64,000 nucleotides of DNA from Candidatus Omnitrophota bacterium (GCA_028712255.1 JAQTQJ010000009.1:13977-77976), one strand, 5' to 3'; positions 6,483 through 62,193 are shown, counted from the first letter of the stretch. Program-made: numbers and translations. Notes: a model not told the origin generated them from the letters alone.

Positions 6483-6487
6483 TAACA

Positions 6488-6538
6488 CACCCCGCGCTTA
6501 TAAGGAATTGCGCGGGTGTGCCCTTAGGGGCAAGGAGG
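6488..6538 (+). promoter_or_regulatory. Recurrent structured leader motif, copy 1 (upstream of tuf)
   Basis: Hairpin 1: CACCCCGCGC, loop TTATAAGGAATT, GCGCGGGTG. Hairpin 2: TGCCCTTAGGGGCA. Followed by AAGGAGG, 9 nt before the ATG. Confidence 0.6.
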
Positions 6539-6547
6539 ATAAAAGAT

Positions 6548-20236: not shown

Positions 20237-20240
20237 TATA

Positions 20241-20290
20241 CACCCCGCGCTAATTGGTATTGCGCGGGTGTTGTCTAGGTAGACAAGGAG
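20241..20290 (+). promoter_or_regulatory. Recurrent structured leader motif, copy 4 (upstream of rpsK)
   Basis: Hairpin 1: CACCCCGCGC, loop TAATTGGTATT, GCGCGGGTG. Hairpin 2: TTGTCTAGGTAGACAA. Followed by GGAG SD. Confidence 0.6.
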
Positions 20291-20300
20291 ATAAAATAAA

Positions 20301-23000: not shown

Positions 23001-24177
23001 TATGAAAATAGATACTAGAGTTGCTGAGCGGCTGAAAAAAATAAATCCTTCCTCAACGCTGGCGATAACCTCTAAAGCTAAGAAACTTAAAAGCGAGGGT
23101 AAGGATATTGTTAGTTTTGCCGCCGGCGAACCTGATTTTGATACCCCTGACTTTGTAAAAGATGCGGCAATTGCGGCAATAAATTCAGGATTCACCAAGT
23201 ATACTCCTACCACAGGCATACCCGAATTAAAAAAACTTATTTGTCAGAAATTTAAAAAAGATAATTCTTTGGAATATGCTCCGGATCAGATCATCGTTTC
23301 CAATGGAGCAAAGCATAGCATTTTTAATGCGTTGATGGTGCTTCTAAACCGTGGTGATGAAGCACTTATTCCCCTGCCTTATTGGGTAAGTTACCCTGAG
23401 ATGGTAAATCTGTGCGAGGCAAATGTGCGTTTTATAAAAACAATCTCCGCAAATAATTTCAAAATTTCTGCAGCTGATCTTTCCAAGCATATTACTGCAA
23501 AAACCAAAATCCTTATTCTTAATAGCCCATCGAATCCGACCGGTTCTGTCTATGACCGGCAGGATTTGGAAGCTATCGCTAAAATCTGTGTGGCTAAAAA
23601 TATTTTTGTGATCAGCGATGAGATTTATGAGAAGATTACTTTTGACGGTTTAAAACATAATTCTATTGCCAGTCTAAATAAAGATATTTATAATTTAACC
23701 ATTACGGTCAATGGTTTATCTAAGAGCCATTCGATGACTGGTTGGCGTATCGGTTACCTGGGGGCTCCCAGTGATATTGCAAATGCTATTTCCAATCTGC
23801 AGGATCATACAACTTCTAATCCGAATTCTATTGCTCAGAAGGCAGCGGTGGCAGCAATGAGTGCTCCGGAAGATTTCACGCATAAATTATGCCTTGAGTT
23901 TGCCAAAAGGAGAGATTATTTGGCTGCAAGGCTTCGGGAAGTTAAGAGGCTAAGTTTTTCTATGCCGTTTGGAGCGTTCTATATGTTTTGTGATATATCT
24001 AAAACAGGCCTTGACTCTTTAACCTTTGCTAAGCGCTTGCTGGAGGAAGAATATGTAAGCGTAATTCCAGGATGCAGCTTTGGAATGGATGATCATATTA
24101 GGATAAGTTTTGCCACAAGTATTGAAGAATTACAAAAAGGAATGGATAGGATAGAGGGTTGGTTAAAGAAAATATAA
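23001..24177 (+). CDS. aminotransferase class I/II (aspartate aminotransferase-like)
   Basis: PLP fold-type I features (SKSHSMTGWRIGY, PLP-lysine context). ATG 23001 preferred over the ORF-track GTG at 22978. Confidence 0.8.
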
Positions 24178-24251
24178 ATAGGCTGTAAGTTGTAAGTCGA
24201 AAGTTTTAAGCTTAAAGCTTACGACTTATAGCTTAAAACTAAAGTTATTTT
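24178..24251. repeat. TAAGC-hexamer / AAGCTT-palindrome intergenic repeat, copy A
   Basis: GTAAGTTGTAAGTCGAAAGTTTTAAGCTTAAAGCTTACGACTTATAGCTTAAAAC. Contains inverted TAAGTCG/CGACTTA arms. Confidence 0.6.
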
Positions 24252-25535: not shown

Positions 25536-26582
25536 ATGGAAATTCGCGATTTACTTTTGATGTGTAATGAAAACGGAGCTTCGGATTTACATATTACGGA
25601 AAATGAACCTCCGGTTTTACGAGTCGATGGTAGATTATTGCGTACACAACTGGAAAAATTAGATAAGCAGAGCCTAAAGAAAATGATTTATAGCGTTCTT
25701 TCTAATACCCAGAAAGAGATTTTCGAGCGTGAACTGGAACTCGACTTTTCTCTTGCCCTGCCTGATTTAGACCGTTTTCGAGTGAATGTCCATTTACAAA
25801 AAGGTTCAGTTGAGGCGGCATTTCGCCGTATCCCCAGAGAGATTCCTGCTGTGGAAAAATTAGGTTTACCAAAAATTATATCTGATTTAGCTCGTAGGCC
25901 AAATGGTTTGGTTTTAGTAACTGGTCCTACTGGCATGGGAAAAACCACTACTTTGGCGGCGATGATTGATCTTATTAACGGCGAGCGGGAATGCATGATC
26001 ACCTGTATTGAGGACCCGATTGAATTTATTTATGCCAATAAGAAGAGCATAGTTAAACAGCGAGAGGTTTATTCGGATACACATTCTTTTGCTGATGCCC
26101 TGCGCCATGCCCTTAGACAAGATCCCAATGTTATCGTGGTAGGAGAGATGCGTGATTTAGAAACTATTTCAACTGCGCTGACGGCAGCTGAAACTGGCCA
26201 CCTTGTTTTGGCTACTTTGCATACCCCAGATGCCCCGCAAACTATTTCTAGGATTATCGATGTTTTTCCTCCGCATCAGCAGACGCAGGTTAAATTACAA
26301 CTTTCCGATTGTTTGCAAGGAGTAATTTCACAGCTTTTGCTTCCGCATGCCTCAGGGAAGGGCAGGGTATTGGCTACGGAGGTGATGATAGCAACGGCTA
26401 GTATTCGCAACCTTATCCGTGAACAACAAATTGAACAGATTCCGACAATGATGCAGACTGGCTTACAATATGGTATGAATACCATGGATAGCTGTCTTAA
26501 GGAGTTGACTCAGAAAGGGTTGATTACTTTAGATATGGCTATGTCTAAGGTAAAGAATAGGGAAGAATTCAAACAGCTATGA
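25536..26582 (+). CDS. pilT: type IV pilus retraction ATPase PilT (twitching motility)
   Basis: 348 aa with Walker A GPTGMGKTTT. PilT/PilU-like N and C termini. 4-nt overlap with leuD. Confidence 0.85.
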   Translation: MEIRDLLLMCNENGASDLHITENEPPVLRVDGRLLRTQLEKLDKQSLKKMIYSVLSNTQKEIFERELELDFSLALPDLDRFRVNVHLQKGSVEAAFRRIPREIPAVEKLGLPKIISDLARRPNGLVLVTGPTGMGKTTTLAAMIDLINGERECMITCIEDPIEFIYANKKSIVKQREVYSDTHSFADALRHALRQDPNVIVVGEMRDLETISTALTAAETGHLVLATLHTPDAPQTISRIIDVFPPHQQTQVKLQLSDCLQGVISQLLLPHASGKGRVLATEVMIATASIRNLIREQQIEQIPTMMQTGLQYGMNTMDSCLKELTQKGLITLDMAMSKVKNREEFKQL

Positions 26583-27079: not shown

Positions 27080-28177
27080 ATGGAATATAAAATAACTTTG
27101 ATTCCCGGAGATGGTATTGGCCAGGAAGTTTCTCTTGCAGCTACTCGATGTATTGACGCTACGGGAGTTAAGATTAAATGGGATACTGTGCTTGCAGGAA
27201 GTGTCGCCTTGGAGAAAATGGGAGAGCTCTTGCCACAGAGCGCATTAGATTCAATCAGGAAGAATAAAGTCGCTCTTAAGGGCCCGATTACTACCCCTAT
27301 TGGCACTGGATTTCGATCGGTAAATGTAGCTATTAGGCAGGCTTTAGATCTTTATGCATGCGTGCGTCCGGCAAAAAGTTATTTAGGAGTAAAAAGTATT
27401 TTTAAAGATATCGATTTGGTCATTATTAGGGAAAATAGCGAAGATCTTTACGCAGGTATAGAATTTGAAGAAGGTAAGCCTGAAACCAAAAATTTAATTG
27501 CTCAGATTCAAAAAGATACCAAGCGGATAATTCGTCAGGATTCCGGAATAACTATCAAGCCTATCTCTAAATTTGCCTCAGAAAGAATTGTAAAGTTTGC
27601 TTTTGAGTATGCTTTAAAGAATAAGCGTAAAAAAGTTACTTGTGTGCATAAGGCAAATATCATGAAATTTACCGACGGACTATTTTTAAAAGTTGCCCGG
27701 GAAGTCGCAGTAAATTATAAAGAAAAGATAATTTTTGAAGAAGCTATTGTAGATAATATTACCATGCAGCTAGTACAGAAGCCGCATAATTATGATGTTT
27801 TGGTGTTGCCCAATCTTTATGGAGATATAATTTCAGATCTTTGCGCAGGTTTGGTTGGTGGTTTAGGGGTTGCTCCGGGGGCCAATATCGGTTCTGATAT
27901 TGCGGTTTTCGAAGCAGTACATGGATCTGCGCCAAAATATCAGGGTCAGAATAAGGTTAACCCAACGGCTATGATTTTATCTGGGGTTTTGATGCTGCGG
28001 TATATTAATGAAGCTAAGGCGGCAGATAAATTAGAAGAGGCGGTAAAAGAGGTAATTAGTGAAGGTAAATTTGTAACATACGATTTAAAAAATGATCCGC
28101 TTGATTCAACTGCTGTAGGTACTGCGCAGATGGCTGATGCGATTATTGAGAAGGTTAAAAAATTAAATAAGGCATAA
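27080..28177 (+). CDS. beta-decarboxylating dehydrogenase (3-isopropylmalate/isocitrate/homoisocitrate dehydrogenase family)
   Basis: 365 aa IDH/IMDH family ([19 protein letters not shown]). Adjacent to leuCD. Confidence 0.8.
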
Positions 28178-28229
28178 GTTATAAGTGATAAGCCTTAAGC
28201 TTACAGCTTGTTTAGATTTTAGAAAACAC
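28178..28229. repeat. TAAGC-hexamer repeat, copy B
   Basis: ATAAGTTATAAGTGATAAGCCTTAAGCTTACAGCTTGTTTAGATTTTAG. Confidence 0.6.
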
Positions 28230-28275
28230 GGGACCGTTTCTATTTTTCTAAATTTAGAAAAATAGAAACGGTCCC
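28230..28275. repeat. 46-nt perfect palindrome (likely bidirectional terminator/hairpin), flanked by GTTT(T)AGATTT direct repeats
   Basis: GGGACCGTTTCTATTTTTCTAAATTTAGAAAAATAGAAACGGTCCC is its own reverse complement. Direct repeats sit at 28210-28220 and 28285-28296. Confidence 0.7.
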
Positions 28276-28314
28276 AAGATTCCAGTTTTAGATTTGTTAA
28301 AAGGGATATTTAGG

Positions 28315-29237: not shown

Positions 29238-30527
29238 ATGTATGATCTGGCTGTTATTGGAGCAGGTTGGGCGGGTTTTAACGCTGCTCTAAGGGCAAAG
29301 GATTTTAAGTTAAAAGTTTGCCTTATTGAGTCCGATAATATCGGCGGAACCTGCTTAAACAAGGGTTGTATTCCAACCAAAACATTAATTGCCTGCGCAA
29401 AAGTATTCTCGCTTACTAAGAAATCATCAACTTTTGGAATAGAATTAGATAATCCCCGGTTTAATTTCACAAAAATCCAAGAGAGAAAAAATAAAATTAT
29501 TTATCAGCTTGCTCAAGGTATGAGAGCCAATCTTTCGGGTATTGATTTTATTCAATCAACCGCACAAATTCTTTCTCCTCATGAAATAAAAGTCGATGGC
29601 CGTTTAATTAGCGCCAAGTTTCTACTGATTTCAACCGGAAGCCATCCGCTGGAATTAGCGCAATTAAAATTCGATAAGGAAAAAATAATCTCAAGCGATG
29701 AAGCTCTGTCTTTATCAGAAATCCCGCCTTCTTTATTGATAGCCGGTGGAGGAGTAATTGGTTGTGAATTTGCCAGCCTTTTTTCTATTCTGGGTTCTAA
29801 AGTGGCTATAGCTGAGAAAATCCCTAATATATTAGCAGGACAGGATAATGATGTGGTTAGAAAGATTGAAGTTATATTTAGGAAAAAATCCATTGAAGTG
29901 ATTACTGGTGTTGATATTGCAACTTTGGCTTTACAGAATTATTCACGAGTTTTGGTTTGTGTAGGAAGGGCTCCTAATACTTCAGGCTTAGGGTTGGAAG
30001 GTTTAGGGATAAAATTGGAAAATGGTAGAATAATTGTTGATGATTACCTTAAAACTAATGTTGACAATATATATGCTGCAGGAGATTGTACTTCTAGGAT
30101 AATGCTGGCTCATTATGCTTCTTATCAGGGCAGAGCTGCGGTTGAAAATATGGTTTTGAATAATAAGCATAAAGCGGATAATTCAGTTGTGCCTTCTTGT
30201 GTATTTACTGATCCACAGATTGCTAGCGTAGGTTTGAATGAAGATAGGGCGGTGGCTACTGGTATATCGGTTAAGGCCTATAAGTTTGATTTCCGTGCTT
30301 GCGGTATGGCCTGGATTATCGATGAGGTTGAGGGATTTATCAAGGTTATTAGCAATCGGGATACTCAGGAAGTAATCGGCGCTAGCATAATTGGCCCGTT
30401 TGCTAGCGAATTAATTGCAATCTTCTCTGTAGCAATTTCTGCGCATTTGACCGTTAGTCAGATACGCGCAATAATCTTTGCTCATCCTACTCTTTCGGAA
30501 TCAATACATGAAGTTGTATGTGATTAA
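29238..30527 (+). CDS. lpdA: dihydrolipoyl dehydrogenase-like flavoprotein disulfide reductase
   Basis: FAD motif GAGWAG, redox-active CLNKGC, C-terminal dimerisation domain. 429 aa. Confidence 0.8.
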   Translation: MYDLAVIGAGWAGFNAALRAKDFKLKVCLIESDNIGGTCLNKGCIPTKTLIACAKVFSLTKKSSTFGIELDNPRFNFTKIQERKNKIIYQLAQGMRANLSGIDFIQSTAQILSPHEIKVDGRLISAKFLLISTGSHPLELAQLKFDKEKIISSDEALSLSEIPPSLLIAGGGVIGCEFASLFSILGSKVAIAEKIPNILAGQDNDVVRKIEVIFRKKSIEVITGVDIATLALQNYSRVLVCVGRAPNTSGLGLEGLGIKLENGRIIVDDYLKTNVDNIYAAGDCTSRIMLAHYASYQGRAAVENMVLNNKHKADNSVVPSCVFTDPQIASVGLNEDRAVATGISVKAYKFDFRACGMAWIIDEVEGFIKVISNRDTQEVIGASIIGPFASELIAIFSVAISAHLTVSQIRAIIFAHPTLSESIHEVVCD

Positions 30528-30530
30528 GAG

Positions 30531-30609
30531 CACCTGGCCCTTAATGGAATTGGGCCAGTGTTCGCCTGGTGGCGAAGAATTGCGCGGGTGTTTCCTTGTG
30601 GGAAGGAGG
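30531..30609 (+). promoter_or_regulatory. Recurrent structured leader motif, copy 5 (tandem 1.5 copies upstream of lipoyl-domain protein)
   Basis: Full unit: CACCTGGCCC, loop TTAATGGAATT, GGGCCAGTG, then hairpin TTCGCCTGGTGGCGAA. Partial second unit: GAATT, GCGCGGGTG, then TTCCTTGTGGGAA. Followed by GGAGG. Confidence 0.55.
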
Positions 30610-30614
30610 CTTTT

Positions 30615-30851
30615 ATGGTAAAAGTCGTTTTACCGGAATTAGGCGAAGGTATTACTAAGGCTACCGTATCATATTGGTTTTTTAAAGATGGACAGAAAGT
30701 AAGTAAGAATGATGATTTGGTTGAACTTACTACAGATAAAACTACATTTAATTTACCCAGCCCCTGTACTGGAATAATCTCTGAGATAATGTATAGTGAA
30801 GGCGATAGCGTAGAGGCAGGTCAGACACTAGCGGTAATCGATGAAGAATAA
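30615..30851 (+). CDS. free-standing biotin/lipoyl attachment domain protein
   Basis: 78 aa with E2-like lipoyl-lysine context TDKTTFNLPSPCTGII. The ORF-track start at 30558 lies inside the leader motif. Confidence 0.7.
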   Translation: MVKVVLPELGEGITKATVSYWFFKDGQKVSKNDDLVELTTDKTTFNLPSPCTGIISEIMYSEGDSVEAGQTLAVIDEE

Positions 30852-30875: not shown

Positions 30876-30919
30876 AAGGGGATGGTTCTCTTAAGCAAGA
30901 GAACCATCCCCTTATTTTT
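30876..30919 (+). terminator. rho-independent terminator
   Basis: About 16-bp stem AAGGGGATGGTTCTCTT/AAGAGAACCATCCCCTT, loop AAGC, then TTATTTTT. Confidence 0.85.
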
Positions 30920-35341: not shown

Positions 35342-35394
35342 AAGATAAAGTTTATTGACAAATTAGAATGGAGTGTTAAAGTAATTAAGACAAT

Positions 35395-35600
35395 TTAGTG
35401 ATACAGGTTAAGGGAAATCCGTTTGGCCACAAGGCCATGGTTTGGCACAAAAAAGCCAAAGCCAGAAATCGGATGCGGTCCCGCCGCTGTAAAAGTTGAC
35501 GAAAGCTGCTAGCAGATAAAAGCCACTGTACTATGGAAATTAGTATGGGAAGGCGCAGCAAGTAGGATAAGACTTAAGCCAGAAGACCTGCCTGTATAAA
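35395..35600 (+). promoter_or_regulatory. cobalamin (AdoCbl) riboswitch
   Basis: GGGAAATCCG region and CCGCCGCTGTAAAAG. B12 box AGCCAGAAGACCTGCC at 35578-35593. A possible hairpin/U-rich expression platform lies further downstream at ~35643-35690. Precedes btuFCD-cobCUTS. Confidence 0.6.
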
Positions 35601-35689
35601 GAAAGTAATGCCTCGTGGAAGGGCCATAGTATTATCAGGGTGAAGCCCGATCCAGGTACCAGGAGTACCAGGTTCGGGTATTTTATTTT

Positions 35690-48359: not shown

Positions 48360-48480
48360 GTTTAAACTCTAAATAAGCTCTAAGCCATAAGCGATAAGCT
48401 GTAAGCTTACAGCTTAAAACTTACAACTTAAAGCTTTTGTTTTGAAGTTTTGAGTTTTAGTGTTTTAGAATTTAAGGATT
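48360..48480. repeat. TAAGC-hexamer / AAGCTT-palindrome intergenic repeat, copy C, plus GTTTTRAG octamer tandem
   Basis: AAATAAGCTCTAAGCCATAAGCGATAAGCTGTAAGCTTACAGCTTAAAACTTACAACTTAAAGCTT, including the 20-nt perfect palindrome AAGCTGTAAGCTTACAGCTT (48396-48415). Followed by GTTTTGAAGTTTTGAGTTTTAGTGTTTTAG. Confidence 0.65.
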
Positions 48481-61831: not shown

Positions 61832-62119
61832 ATGTCAATGCATCCGTCATTAACTATTTCGGAAAAGGACAAGAAGGTCCGCTCGGTATTGAAACGTTCT
61901 GAGCGCATAAAACTGATGCAAGAAAAAAGTAAATGGCAGCAAGGTGATTCGGTTTATGGCCTTCCGAAGCTCAAATCTTTAAGGATTAAGATTAAAAAGG
62001 AAAAAGTTGAAAAAGCTGAAAGCGCAACTGCGCAGGCTGCTACACCAGCAGCTGGTGCTACTAAAGAAGCTGCCAAAGCTGCTCCTAAAGCTGCCGCCAA
62101 GGCTCAAGAGAAGAAATAA
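61832..62119 (+). CDS. small basic protein Sbp-like (A/K-rich histone-H1-like tail)
   Basis: N-terminus MHPSLTIS...VRSVLKRSER resembles the Sbp family I recall from PVC-group bacteria. C-terminal AKAAPKAAAKA tail. Confidence 0.45.
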   Translation: MSMHPSLTISEKDKKVRSVLKRSERIKLMQEKSKWQQGDSVYGLPKLKSLRIKIKKEKVEKAESATAQAATPAAGATKEAAKAAPKAAAKAQEKK

Positions 62120-62193
62120 AATTTGATTATAAGCTTTAAGCTGTAAGTTTTAAGCTATAAGCTTAAGGGTTATCGCTTGCAGCTTACTTAAAT
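62120..62193. repeat. TAAGC-hexamer intergenic repeat, copy D
   Basis: ATAAGCTTTAAGCTGTAAGTTTTAAGCTATAAGCTTAAGGGTTATCGCTTGCAGCTTACTTA. Confidence 0.6.

Follow-up and report, generated by a model that had tools for sequence, protein, structure and literature searches.

We analyzed a stretch of 64,000 nucleotides (nt) from a Candidatus Omnitrophota bacterium (the window, i.e. the whole stretch, with positions counted from its first letter), and in it an element of GC-rich hairpins at 30531-30609, which separates lpd from a 78-amino-acid (aa) open reading frame (ORF) for a lipoyl-domain protein. The window has a GC content of 39%, its encoded proteins also point to the Omnitrophota, and every long ORF lies on the plus strand. 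At the locus, genes for aconitase-family subunits are followed by icd, mdh, lpd (29238-30527), the element, the 78-aa ORF (30615-30851) and an HD-GYP-type gene. Our results make it likely that the element is a mosaic of units of a GC-rich double-hairpin repeat, dispersed in the Omnitrophota and dynamic in copy number, and that the lipoyl gene has no dedicated sensor or regulator in it. The features of the locus are given below; a unit of the repeat consists of hairpin 1 followed by hairpin 2, and SD denotes the Shine-Dalgarno sequence.

29238-30527, plus strand: lpd, encoding dihydrolipoyl dehydrogenase, 429 aa (TIGR01350, 443 bits, cut-off 408.8; Pfam Pyr_redox_2 and Pyr_redox_dim)
30525-30527, plus strand: lpd stop codon TAA, 3 nt before the element
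30531-30576, plus strand: inner unit, a full unit with hairpin 1 and hairpin 2
30531-30540, plus strand: 5' arm of inner-unit hairpin 1, CACCTGGCCC
30541-30551, plus strand: 11-nt loop of inner-unit hairpin 1, TTAATGGAATT
30552-30560, plus strand: 3' arm of inner-unit hairpin 1, GGGCCAGTG
30561-30576, plus strand: inner-unit hairpin 2, TTCGCCTGGTGGCGAA (TTCGCC TGGT GGCGAA), fold -8.5 kcal/mol
30577-30590, plus strand: half unit, i.e. loop remnant GAATT and 3' arm GCGCGGGTG, an orphan whose 5' partner CACCCCGCGC is absent
30591-30604, plus strand: half-unit hairpin 2, TTTCCTTGTGGGAA (TTTCC TTGT GGGAA), canonical fold -3.1 kcal/mol
30605-30609, plus strand: SD GGAGG, assigned from the sequence
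30615, plus strand: start codon ATG of the lipoyl ORF
30615-30851, plus strand: stand-alone E2-type lipoyl-domain protein, 78 aa (PF00364, E = 1.3e-19; K42 in a TDK motif)
30876-30919, plus strand: 17-bp hairpin AAGGGGATGGTTCTCTT / AAGAGAACCATCCCCTT followed by a T-run, read from the sequence and not flagged by a terminator scan

This layout agrees to the base with a preliminary description of the DNA, which had placed a full unit, a partial unit and GGAGG here. Hairpin 1 of the inner unit (30531-30560, with a bulged C33) matched our covariance model at 58.1 bits (E = 1.8e-15) and folded with the predicted pairing at -14.0 kcal/mol. Its stem had been called the most divergent of all copies, which proved incorrect: the arms differ from the consensus at two positions, both compensated, and the rplF copy (14606) is at least as divergent. 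Nor is the stem idiosyncratic, as near-identical whole units of the same subfamily recur at L150:11052 and L150:11187 (L numbers are our labels for the compared loci and contigs). Two independent short assemblies of the window's strain from other sequencing runs (Logan contigs L205 and L206) contained the identical stretch from the GAATT of the inner-unit hairpin-1 loop through the half unit to the gene. The first bases of both are GAATTGGGCCAGTG, within the inner-unit loop. The repeat fragments short-read assemblies, and assemblies were found to break inside the element.

The covariance model was trained on 12 aligned units from the window and the orthologous loci; the other window copies had first been picked up by repeat finding. 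It gave exactly six matches in the window, at 54-64 bits, and nothing else above 10.4 bits. Besides the inner unit, the matches were:

6486-6541, plus strand: copy between fusA and tuf, 64 bits
14152-14206, plus strand: copy between rpsN and rpsH, 61.1 bits; this site is empty in L208-L211
14604-14659, plus strand: copy between rpsH and rplF, 54.4 bits, degenerate in appearance with three G-U pairs and one mismatch
20239-20293, plus strand: copy between rpsM and rpsK, 57.5 bits
52466-52521, plus strand: copy between pfk and a SIS-domain (gmhA-like) gene, 60.5 bits (Pfam PFK and SIS_2 for the genes)

In the 12-unit alignment, the 9-pair stem of hairpin 1, with its conserved bulged C, was paired in 96% of cells, and seven of the nine pairs showed changes on both sides, as expected of compensatory change. 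None of 500 shuffles reached these values, and pairing dropped to 29-49% when the stem was read at slid registers. The hairpin repeat is a real family with covarying stems and not a chance pattern. A metagenome scan, which used the canonical arms and then the model, yielded about 80 further copies on low-GC contigs, many of them composite; about 90 copies were counted in related contigs. Hairpin 1 has the form CAC[C]CNGCGC, a loop TAAnn(G)GAATT and then GCGCNGGTG; among 80 units its sequence was near-invariant, with arms CACCCNGCGC/GCGCNGGTG, an N pair that covaries between C-G and G-C, and a loop that starts with TAA or TTA and ends with ATT. Hairpin 2 starts without a gap, and in it the T next to hairpin 1 is paired with the A that precedes the SD. 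It comprises 4-6 bp of variable sequence, was present in 75 of the 80 units in 62 distinct sequences, and contained 397 Watson-Crick versus 8 G-U pairs, so that its structure is conserved and its sequence is not. Typical copies are followed directly on their 3' side by AAGGAGG, with ATG 4-9 nt further on. For the question of whether the repeat acts as RNA or DNA, G-U and A-C were counted, with 4 versus 1 among 720 pairs in these pattern-ascertained copies. At L116:444-567, a perfect 69-nt tandem duplication (unit plus AT-rich spacer) was seen upstream of a phosphoglycerate-kinase-like gene; hairpin 2 of the duplicated copies is CCTCC/GGAGG, an anti-SD/SD pair.

A strict structure scan found 77 simple hairpins versus 1 in the reversed-sequence control, and 32 stems spanning 40-99 nt versus 9; an initial loose scan had been lost in background (1701 stems versus 1732 in controls). 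A search with the loop TTAATGGAATT by itself found 6 matches versus 5.6 expected, and because this is chance level the loop alone does not define the family. Rfam 15 at gathering thresholds matched only a cobalamin riboswitch and tRNA in the whole window, leaving the repeat unmatched, and at E up to 10 it returned only noise for 30400-30750. No description of the repeat was found in the literature on Omnitrophota RNA motifs or on palindromic or intergenic repeats, and the family appears to be undescribed so far. Two promoter readings were rejected, sigma-70 with 9 promoter-like sites against a shuffle expectation of 8.6, and sigma-54 because its spacing was wrong by inspection.

A total of 182 GTDB species genomes contained the 78-aa gene, and 80 of the loci were compared. 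Units before the lipoyl gene were detectable in 4 of the 80 species representatives and in none of the other 76; the spacer between lpd and the lipoyl gene is short and mostly SD only. The four loci with units by the covariance model, and the closest relatives with the identity of their lipoyl protein to that of the window, were:

L002: one unit upstream of the lipoyl gene
L043: one unit upstream of the lipoyl gene
L029: 2.5 units upstream of the lipoyl gene
L077: 2.5 units upstream of the lipoyl gene
L201: 90% identity, without the element
L204: 92% identity, without the element
L202 and L203: 91% identity, two degenerate units
L205 and L206: 100% identity, the window sequence, with contigs that break within the repeat

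The element is unstable at the lipoyl locus, where its copy number varies among close relatives. The preliminary description had suggested that expression of the lipoyl protein is set by the element and had proposed comparing the number of units among orthologous loci. This comparison gave 0, 1, 2 or 2.5 units and showed the window's arrangement to be largely a one-off without conservation; the suggestion was not supported by it, and the element is probably not a dedicated switch for the lipoyl gene. L015, which is without the element, has the same GGAGGCTTTTATG as the window, indicating that the SD and spacer predate the insertion at this locus. At L202:2400-2500, and also in L203, the lpd frame crosses a degenerate 5' arm (..GAC GCC TCG CGC TAA) and stops at the loop TAA; as the frame ends at a hairpin-loop TAA, the repeat added four codons to Lpd in these two loci.

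The arrangement in the window is matched by nested copies elsewhere. Six loci (L090, L098, L135, L077, L131 and L186) contain a complete nested layout, i.e. outer 5' arm, TAAnn, inner hairpin 1 and hairpin 2, (G)AATT, outer 3' arm, hairpin 2 and SD, in which the two outer arms are mutually complementary and unlike the inner arms. In L007 and L150 the nests are three layers deep, and minimum-free-energy folds reproduce the nests. A pair of glnA leaders shows a plain unit in L176 and a filled loop in L113, with a second unit inside and the 3' arm partly deleted. Window positions 30577-30604 are exactly the '(G)AATT, outer 3' arm, hairpin 2' portion of the nested layout, and 30577-30591 matches the 3' half of the tuf copy (GAATTGCGCGGGTGT) at 15 of 15 positions; with up to 3 mismatches, the half-unit sequence had 6 matches versus 0.9 expected. 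The inner unit (30531-30576) is of the type typically found inside other units, and L029, L150, L147 and L169 likewise have a TCGCC-NNNN-GGCGAA hairpin with (G)AATT and a foreign 3' arm behind it. No CACCCCGCGC-like partner for an outer 5' arm was found within 430 nt upstream, and the lpd stop codon occupies the place expected for this arm. From this layout we infer that the half unit is what remains of an outer unit, which formerly surrounded the inner unit and has lost its 5' arm.

Five tuf loci (L207-L211) were picked by protein similarity only (85-94% EF-Tu identity, 10-kb flanks). The closest, L207 (94%), held the sole clear copies among the five, at tuf, rpsH and rplF as in the window, with an extra copy at rpsG, where the window is empty. 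L208 had one weak degenerate match, at rpsG, and the covariance model found no copies in the tuf-spc loci of L209, L210 and L211. Besides this weak match, ribosomal protein copies are confined to the window and L207. Empty and filled sites could be paired at fusA|tuf, rpsL|rpsG, rpsN|rpsH and lpd|lipoyl; the 3' junction fell at the SD each time, in the first three pairs at its first purines, and the SD spacer was common to filled and empty sites. Between the window and L207, the rpsH and rplF copies were of different subtypes and only 72% and 68% identical, respectively, while the tuf copy was near-identical, at 46 of 47 positions to the L207 copy and 55 of 56 to the L160 copy, which suggests that some copies turn over fast and that at least one is constrained. 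In the genomes sharing the tuf copy, synonymous changes were found in 42-52% of the conserved tuf codons. The tuf copy has a private hairpin-2 loop (GCCC TTAG GGGC), 98-100% conserved in the window, at L207:9941-9996 and in L160 (minus strand, 2353-2408); in L160, fusA is apparently not upstream of tuf.

Among 77 arrays, ATG was found within 10 nt of the model end in 46 and within 40 nt in 11 more; the 11 arrays with the more distant ATG mostly have an intervening outer half unit, as at the lipoyl locus. Downstream genes included tuf, dnaK (3 loci), rplL, rplT, rpmI, pgk, eno, pfk, ndk, glnA, glnB, mdh and many lipoprotein genes, but this list cannot show enrichment, because the loci were selected for carrying the motif. 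Units were also found antisense inside the variable P3 loop of the FMN riboswitch aptamer (L134, L184 and L196), and arrays lie in front of a tRNA gene in L150. The P3 loop of the FMN riboswitch is expanded to 47 nt in L134 (3089-3302, one unit) and to 86 nt in L184 (2092-2318, two units), the riboswitch at L196:1-127 also carries a unit, and the P2 loop has a further 24-nt hairpin insert. Viral contigs gave 45 pattern matches, none of which passed the model, with no sign of phage carriage; the bare pattern therefore matches high-GC DNA by chance.

To the folding of the locus we applied partition-function calculations, which were run on the region from -110 to +30 of each window copy. The predicted mean probability that the SD is unpaired was 0.67-0.84 in the five canonical copies and 0.03 in the lipoyl leader. 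In the latter, an alternative 8-bp helix at 30590-30610 (GUUUCCUU/AAGGAGGC) takes in the SD, at -8.1 versus -3.1 kcal/mol for the canonical hairpin, and it appears in both the minimum-free-energy and the centroid structures. The SD is thus predicted to be closed because the U-rich last hairpin can slip to GUUUCCUU/AAGGAGGC. As this masking is absent from L002, L029, L043 and L077, we treat it as an accident of the lipoyl copy and not as designed control.

Altogether, the 1.5-unit arrangement is best explained as an ordinary by-product of repeat dynamics. New units would arise 5' of an SD, and inside the loops of older units just 5' of (G)GAATT, giving 'Russian-doll' arrays. At the lipoyl locus, an inner unit would have become nested within an older outer unit, whose 5' arm was later lost, so that the outer loop remnant, 3' arm and hairpin 2 would be what survives. 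The units may spread as DNA, through recombination, gene conversion or transposition, the last possibly by a Y1/RAYT-type enzyme that acts on single-stranded hairpins. The element would be co-transcribed with lpd and fold into three hairpins, and the slip of the last helix onto the SD would reduce translation of the lipoyl protein and not tune it.

In its behaviour the family is like REP/BIME and small MITE-like repeats, yet it lacks the features that define them, i.e. GTAG, inverted pairing and target duplication. REP/BIME repeats and REPINs are mobilised by RAYT (Y1) transposases (PMC3333891, PMC3116915, PMC2817692), and REP sequences have a conserved GTAG tetranucleotide 5' of the foot of the palindrome (PMC3333891). 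Like REP/BIME, our repeat contains a short (~30 nt), GC-rich, imperfect palindrome with a conserved stem irregularity, is extragenic and present in many copies, forms composite arrays whose copy number at a locus differs between strains, would be transcribed within operons, where REP/BIME can affect mRNA, and shares one contig with a Y1_Tnp gene. Unlike REP, it has no GTAG on either strand, and the 5' flank before CAC is NN (AA, TA, GG, AG, GA). Its arrays are direct or nested, unlike the inverted pairs of REP and REPINs, with an inverted neighbour only in L090 and L131; the unit requires a second, variable hairpin; the repeat is fixed at the 5' edge of the SD, unlike REP/BIME at gene 3' ends; and no RAYT gene flanked by double-hairpin units was found in the contigs examined.

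A tblastn search with IS608 TnpA and E. coli RAYT gave one real match, in L106, a short contig with a double-hairpin unit at its end. The match is a 195-aa IS200-like Y1 transposase (Y1_Tnp, Pfam E = 7e-14), whose gene is flanked by inverted copies of GGGGACGGTTCCTC, which belongs to another palindrome family; the double-hairpin unit lies ~130 nt downstream. These organisms thus have enzymes of the kind that moves hairpin repeats, with none tied to our repeat.

Repeats of the Correia, BOX, RUP, ERIC and NIME type are co-transcribed, fold as RNA and alter the expression of neighbouring genes. Our family resembles Correia (Neisseria), BOX/RUP (Streptococcus), ERIC/IRU and NIMEs (for which see the review PMC3184786) in that it is dispersed and intergenic and occurs in mosaics and truncated forms. 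It differs from the Correia/BOX/ERIC type, which is 100-200 nt long with terminal inverted repeats and target duplications, in having a unit of ~47 nt that nests in its own loop. As judged by what marks a MITE, its sole inverted repeat is the hairpin stem, and no target-site duplication was seen in the four empty/filled comparisons. IS1397 and ISKpn1 are insertion sequences (IS) that insert into the loops of REP or palindromic units (PMC1525189); here too, hairpin loops of repeats serve as insertion sites, but what is inserted is a further copy of the small repeat itself, unlike these transposase-carrying IS. With the PATEs derived from IS200/IS605 (enzyme family, PMC3333891) it shares two adjacent hairpins, a strand-specific orientation and insertion beside a short specific sequence with no target duplication, the presumed target being the SD-like GGA run; unlike PATEs, it comes with no identified cognate TnpA or cleavage motif. 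Like the ompA 5' hairpin and STAB-SD, which stabilise mRNA, and like intercistronic hairpins, it places a hairpin, here predicted to be stable, in the mRNA leader immediately before a strong SD; unlike these single, locus-specific structures it is a repeated family.

It is possible, and we propose it only tentatively, that the repeat is a miniature mobile element of an undescribed kind, a ~47-nt double hairpin placed at the 5' edge of SD-like GGA runs, of which some copies, such as that in the tuf leader, have been domesticated as translation-initiation or mRNA-stability modules. If such an element targeted the SD, its self-nesting would be explained, because the hairpin's own loop is SD-like.

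Several observations weigh against a dispersed repeat as the explanation of the locus. The tuf copy is conserved despite the synonymous divergence of tuf, so that some copies look selected and not selfish, and the pairing of hairpin 2 has been kept across many sequence changes. A same-strand SD and start codon lie within 40 nt downstream of 57 of the 77 arrays. The missing target-site duplications noted above count here as well, as does the failure to link any transposase to the repeat, given that the Y1 gene of L106 has another palindrome on its flanks. That the outer 5' arm was lost is a reconstruction and was not observed, and masking of the SD is a thermodynamic prediction that is not conserved in L002 or L029. 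Furthermore, the metagenome copies were collected by a pattern that fixes the arms, which biases both the stem statistics and the gene list.

Some of these observations would be expected if the unit were a selected cis-acting RNA module, i.e. an insulator or enhancer of translation initiation, or a 5' stabiliser or processing signal, serving genes that need strong or independent expression inside operons, with the half unit as a leader variant that sets lipoyl output. Units abut the SD on the strand of the gene at the ATG distances given above (46 of 77 arrays within 10 nt), both hairpins covary, the SD is predicted to be open in five of the six window copies, conservation of the tuf copy far exceeds that of synonymous sites, the divergent pairs in L131 and L090 each face their own gene, and the downstream genes include tuf, dnaK (3 loci), rplL, rplT, rpmI, pgk, eno, pfk and ndk, albeit in a list drawn from motif-selected loci. 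However, a conserved cis-regulatory RNA should hold the same orthologous position in relatives, and the unit does so in 4 of 80 lipoyl loci (it is missing from 76) and clearly in one of the five tuf/S10/spc loci chosen without bias (it is missing from three, with one weak match in a fourth). Orthologous rpsH and rplF copies differ in subtype at 68-72% identity, truncated and orphan pieces and antisense copies within a riboswitch loop occur, and the lipoyl copy is the very one whose SD is predicted to be closed. We regard a selected module as unlikely.

The preliminary description had read the 1.5 units as a tandem duplication, which would have arisen by local slippage of a 30-nt segment (GAATT, 3' arm and hairpin 2), the first copy then co-evolving with the 5' arm. 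The period is indeed 30 nt (30547, 30577), both pieces share their layout, and exact tandem duplication is known in the family from L116. Nevertheless, the two 30-nt pieces are identical at only 18 of 30 positions, on which ground it is improbable that the half unit arose as a slipped tandem copy. The second arm has the consensus sequence of the family and agrees with the tuf copy throughout, the first unit belongs to a distinct subfamily that is found with a foreign 3' arm in L150, L029, L147 and L169, and in complete nests (L090, L098, L135 and L077, as well as the deeper ones in L007 and L150) the second arm has its partner 5' of the first unit. Slippage is thus a very improbable origin. 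Scarcely any weight can be given to a dedicated attenuator or SD-sequestering switch in the helix 30590-30610 that uncouples lipoyl-protein synthesis from lpd: a terminator scan flagged its 8 pairs and the following TTTTATGG (UUUUAU) as weakly terminator-like, where canonical units have no U-run after the hairpin, the SD is predicted to be paired, and the 5' arm of the inner unit could pair with the orphan arm (-10.7 versus -14.4 kcal/mol for its own arm), but only 4 U follow the helix, L002, L029, L043 and L077 have a canonical hairpin 2 instead, L201 and L204 are without the element, and neither a ligand-binding or antiterminator architecture nor an Rfam match was found.

The gene behind the element encodes a free lipoyl domain and follows a true dihydrolipoyl dehydrogenase gene, as the preliminary description had proposed. 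The protein matched PF00364 at 70.3 bits (cut-off 22.1), and its PDB relatives are E2 lipoyl domains (E2p; E = 3e-28 to 1e-13), in which the lipoylated lysine aligns with K42; across 49 orthologues, K42 and a further 32 positions are invariant. It is like an E2 lipoyl domain in its E2-type sequence, its lipoyl lysine and its place beside lpd. It is not an E2, since it has no catalytic or subunit-binding domain and the ORF ends at 78 aa, followed by a hairpin and T-run that read as the likely end of an icd-mdh-lpd-lipoyl transcript (30876-30919). Part of a longer, frameshifted E2 gene, the other possibility raised, is ruled out by the same ending and by the homologues, 1085 in number, of which the best 120 are all 78-86 aa long. 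Pfam gave only Biotin_lipoyl and Biotin_lipoyl_2, and no GcvH family was among the Pfam and NCBIfam matches, so the protein is not a GcvH; of the H-protein-like or swinging-arm carrier suggested earlier, the first part found no match, and a swinging-arm carrier served by Lpd is a fair reading of the sequence.

The pairing of lpd with this gene had been thought unusual, but in 75 of 80 loci lpd lies one or two genes upstream of the lipoyl gene, and lipB, passing the LipB equivalog cut-off, lies between them in 27 of 80 species. The order icd-mdh-lpd-(lipB)-lipoyl is a conserved Omnitrophota cluster. In line with the earlier account, no E1 or E2 gene was seen among the window ORFs, part of which were scanned with Pfam, or among the clustered neighbours across the 80 loci, and no literature was found on a stand-alone lipoyl-domain protein of this kind.

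Other repeats and elements were observed nearby. An intergenic family of short TAAGC/TGTAAGC-type units forming palindromes (AAGCTGTAAGCTTACAGCTT) is present at 24170-24234, 28159-28223, 48365-48450 and 62114-62178 of the window, and because TAAGC-type sequence fills the spacer in L014, L019, L021 and L025, the lpd|lipoyl junction collects different repeats. A palindrome family of the form GGGAYGGTTCTC... / ...GAGAACCRTCCC, with ~14-20 bp per arm, lies at 28229-28276 (after icd) and 30876-30913 (after the lipoyl gene, where it is terminator-like). Inverted copies of this family (L106:140-170 and 880-898) flank the 195-aa Y1 RAYT-type gene in an arrangement that resembles a REPtron, and the GGGAYGGTTC palindrome type was also seen in L044, L047, L053, L057 and L079. 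The cobalamin riboswitch (35388-35609, 86 bits) is upstream of periplasmic-binding-protein/ABC transporter genes and cobalamin salvage genes. An ORF at 25536-26582, whose N-terminus looks PilT-type-ATPase-like by eye only, is oddly placed between the genes for the large and small aconitase-family subunits.

For annotation, our results mean that GC-rich hairpins before Omnitrophota genes should not be taken as gene-specific leaders. A repeat that sits exactly between a stop codon and the next ribosome-binding site in densely packed operons, and even in a riboswitch loop, is a natural experiment on how much structure translation-initiation regions tolerate, and targeting of the SD, if true, would be a new mode of target recognition for small mobile DNA. 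Finally, the conserved lpd-(lipB)-lipoyl cluster, in whose examined neighbourhoods no E1 or E2 was seen, points to a lipoyl-dependent redox or carrier function, as yet uncharacterised, in this uncultured phylum.

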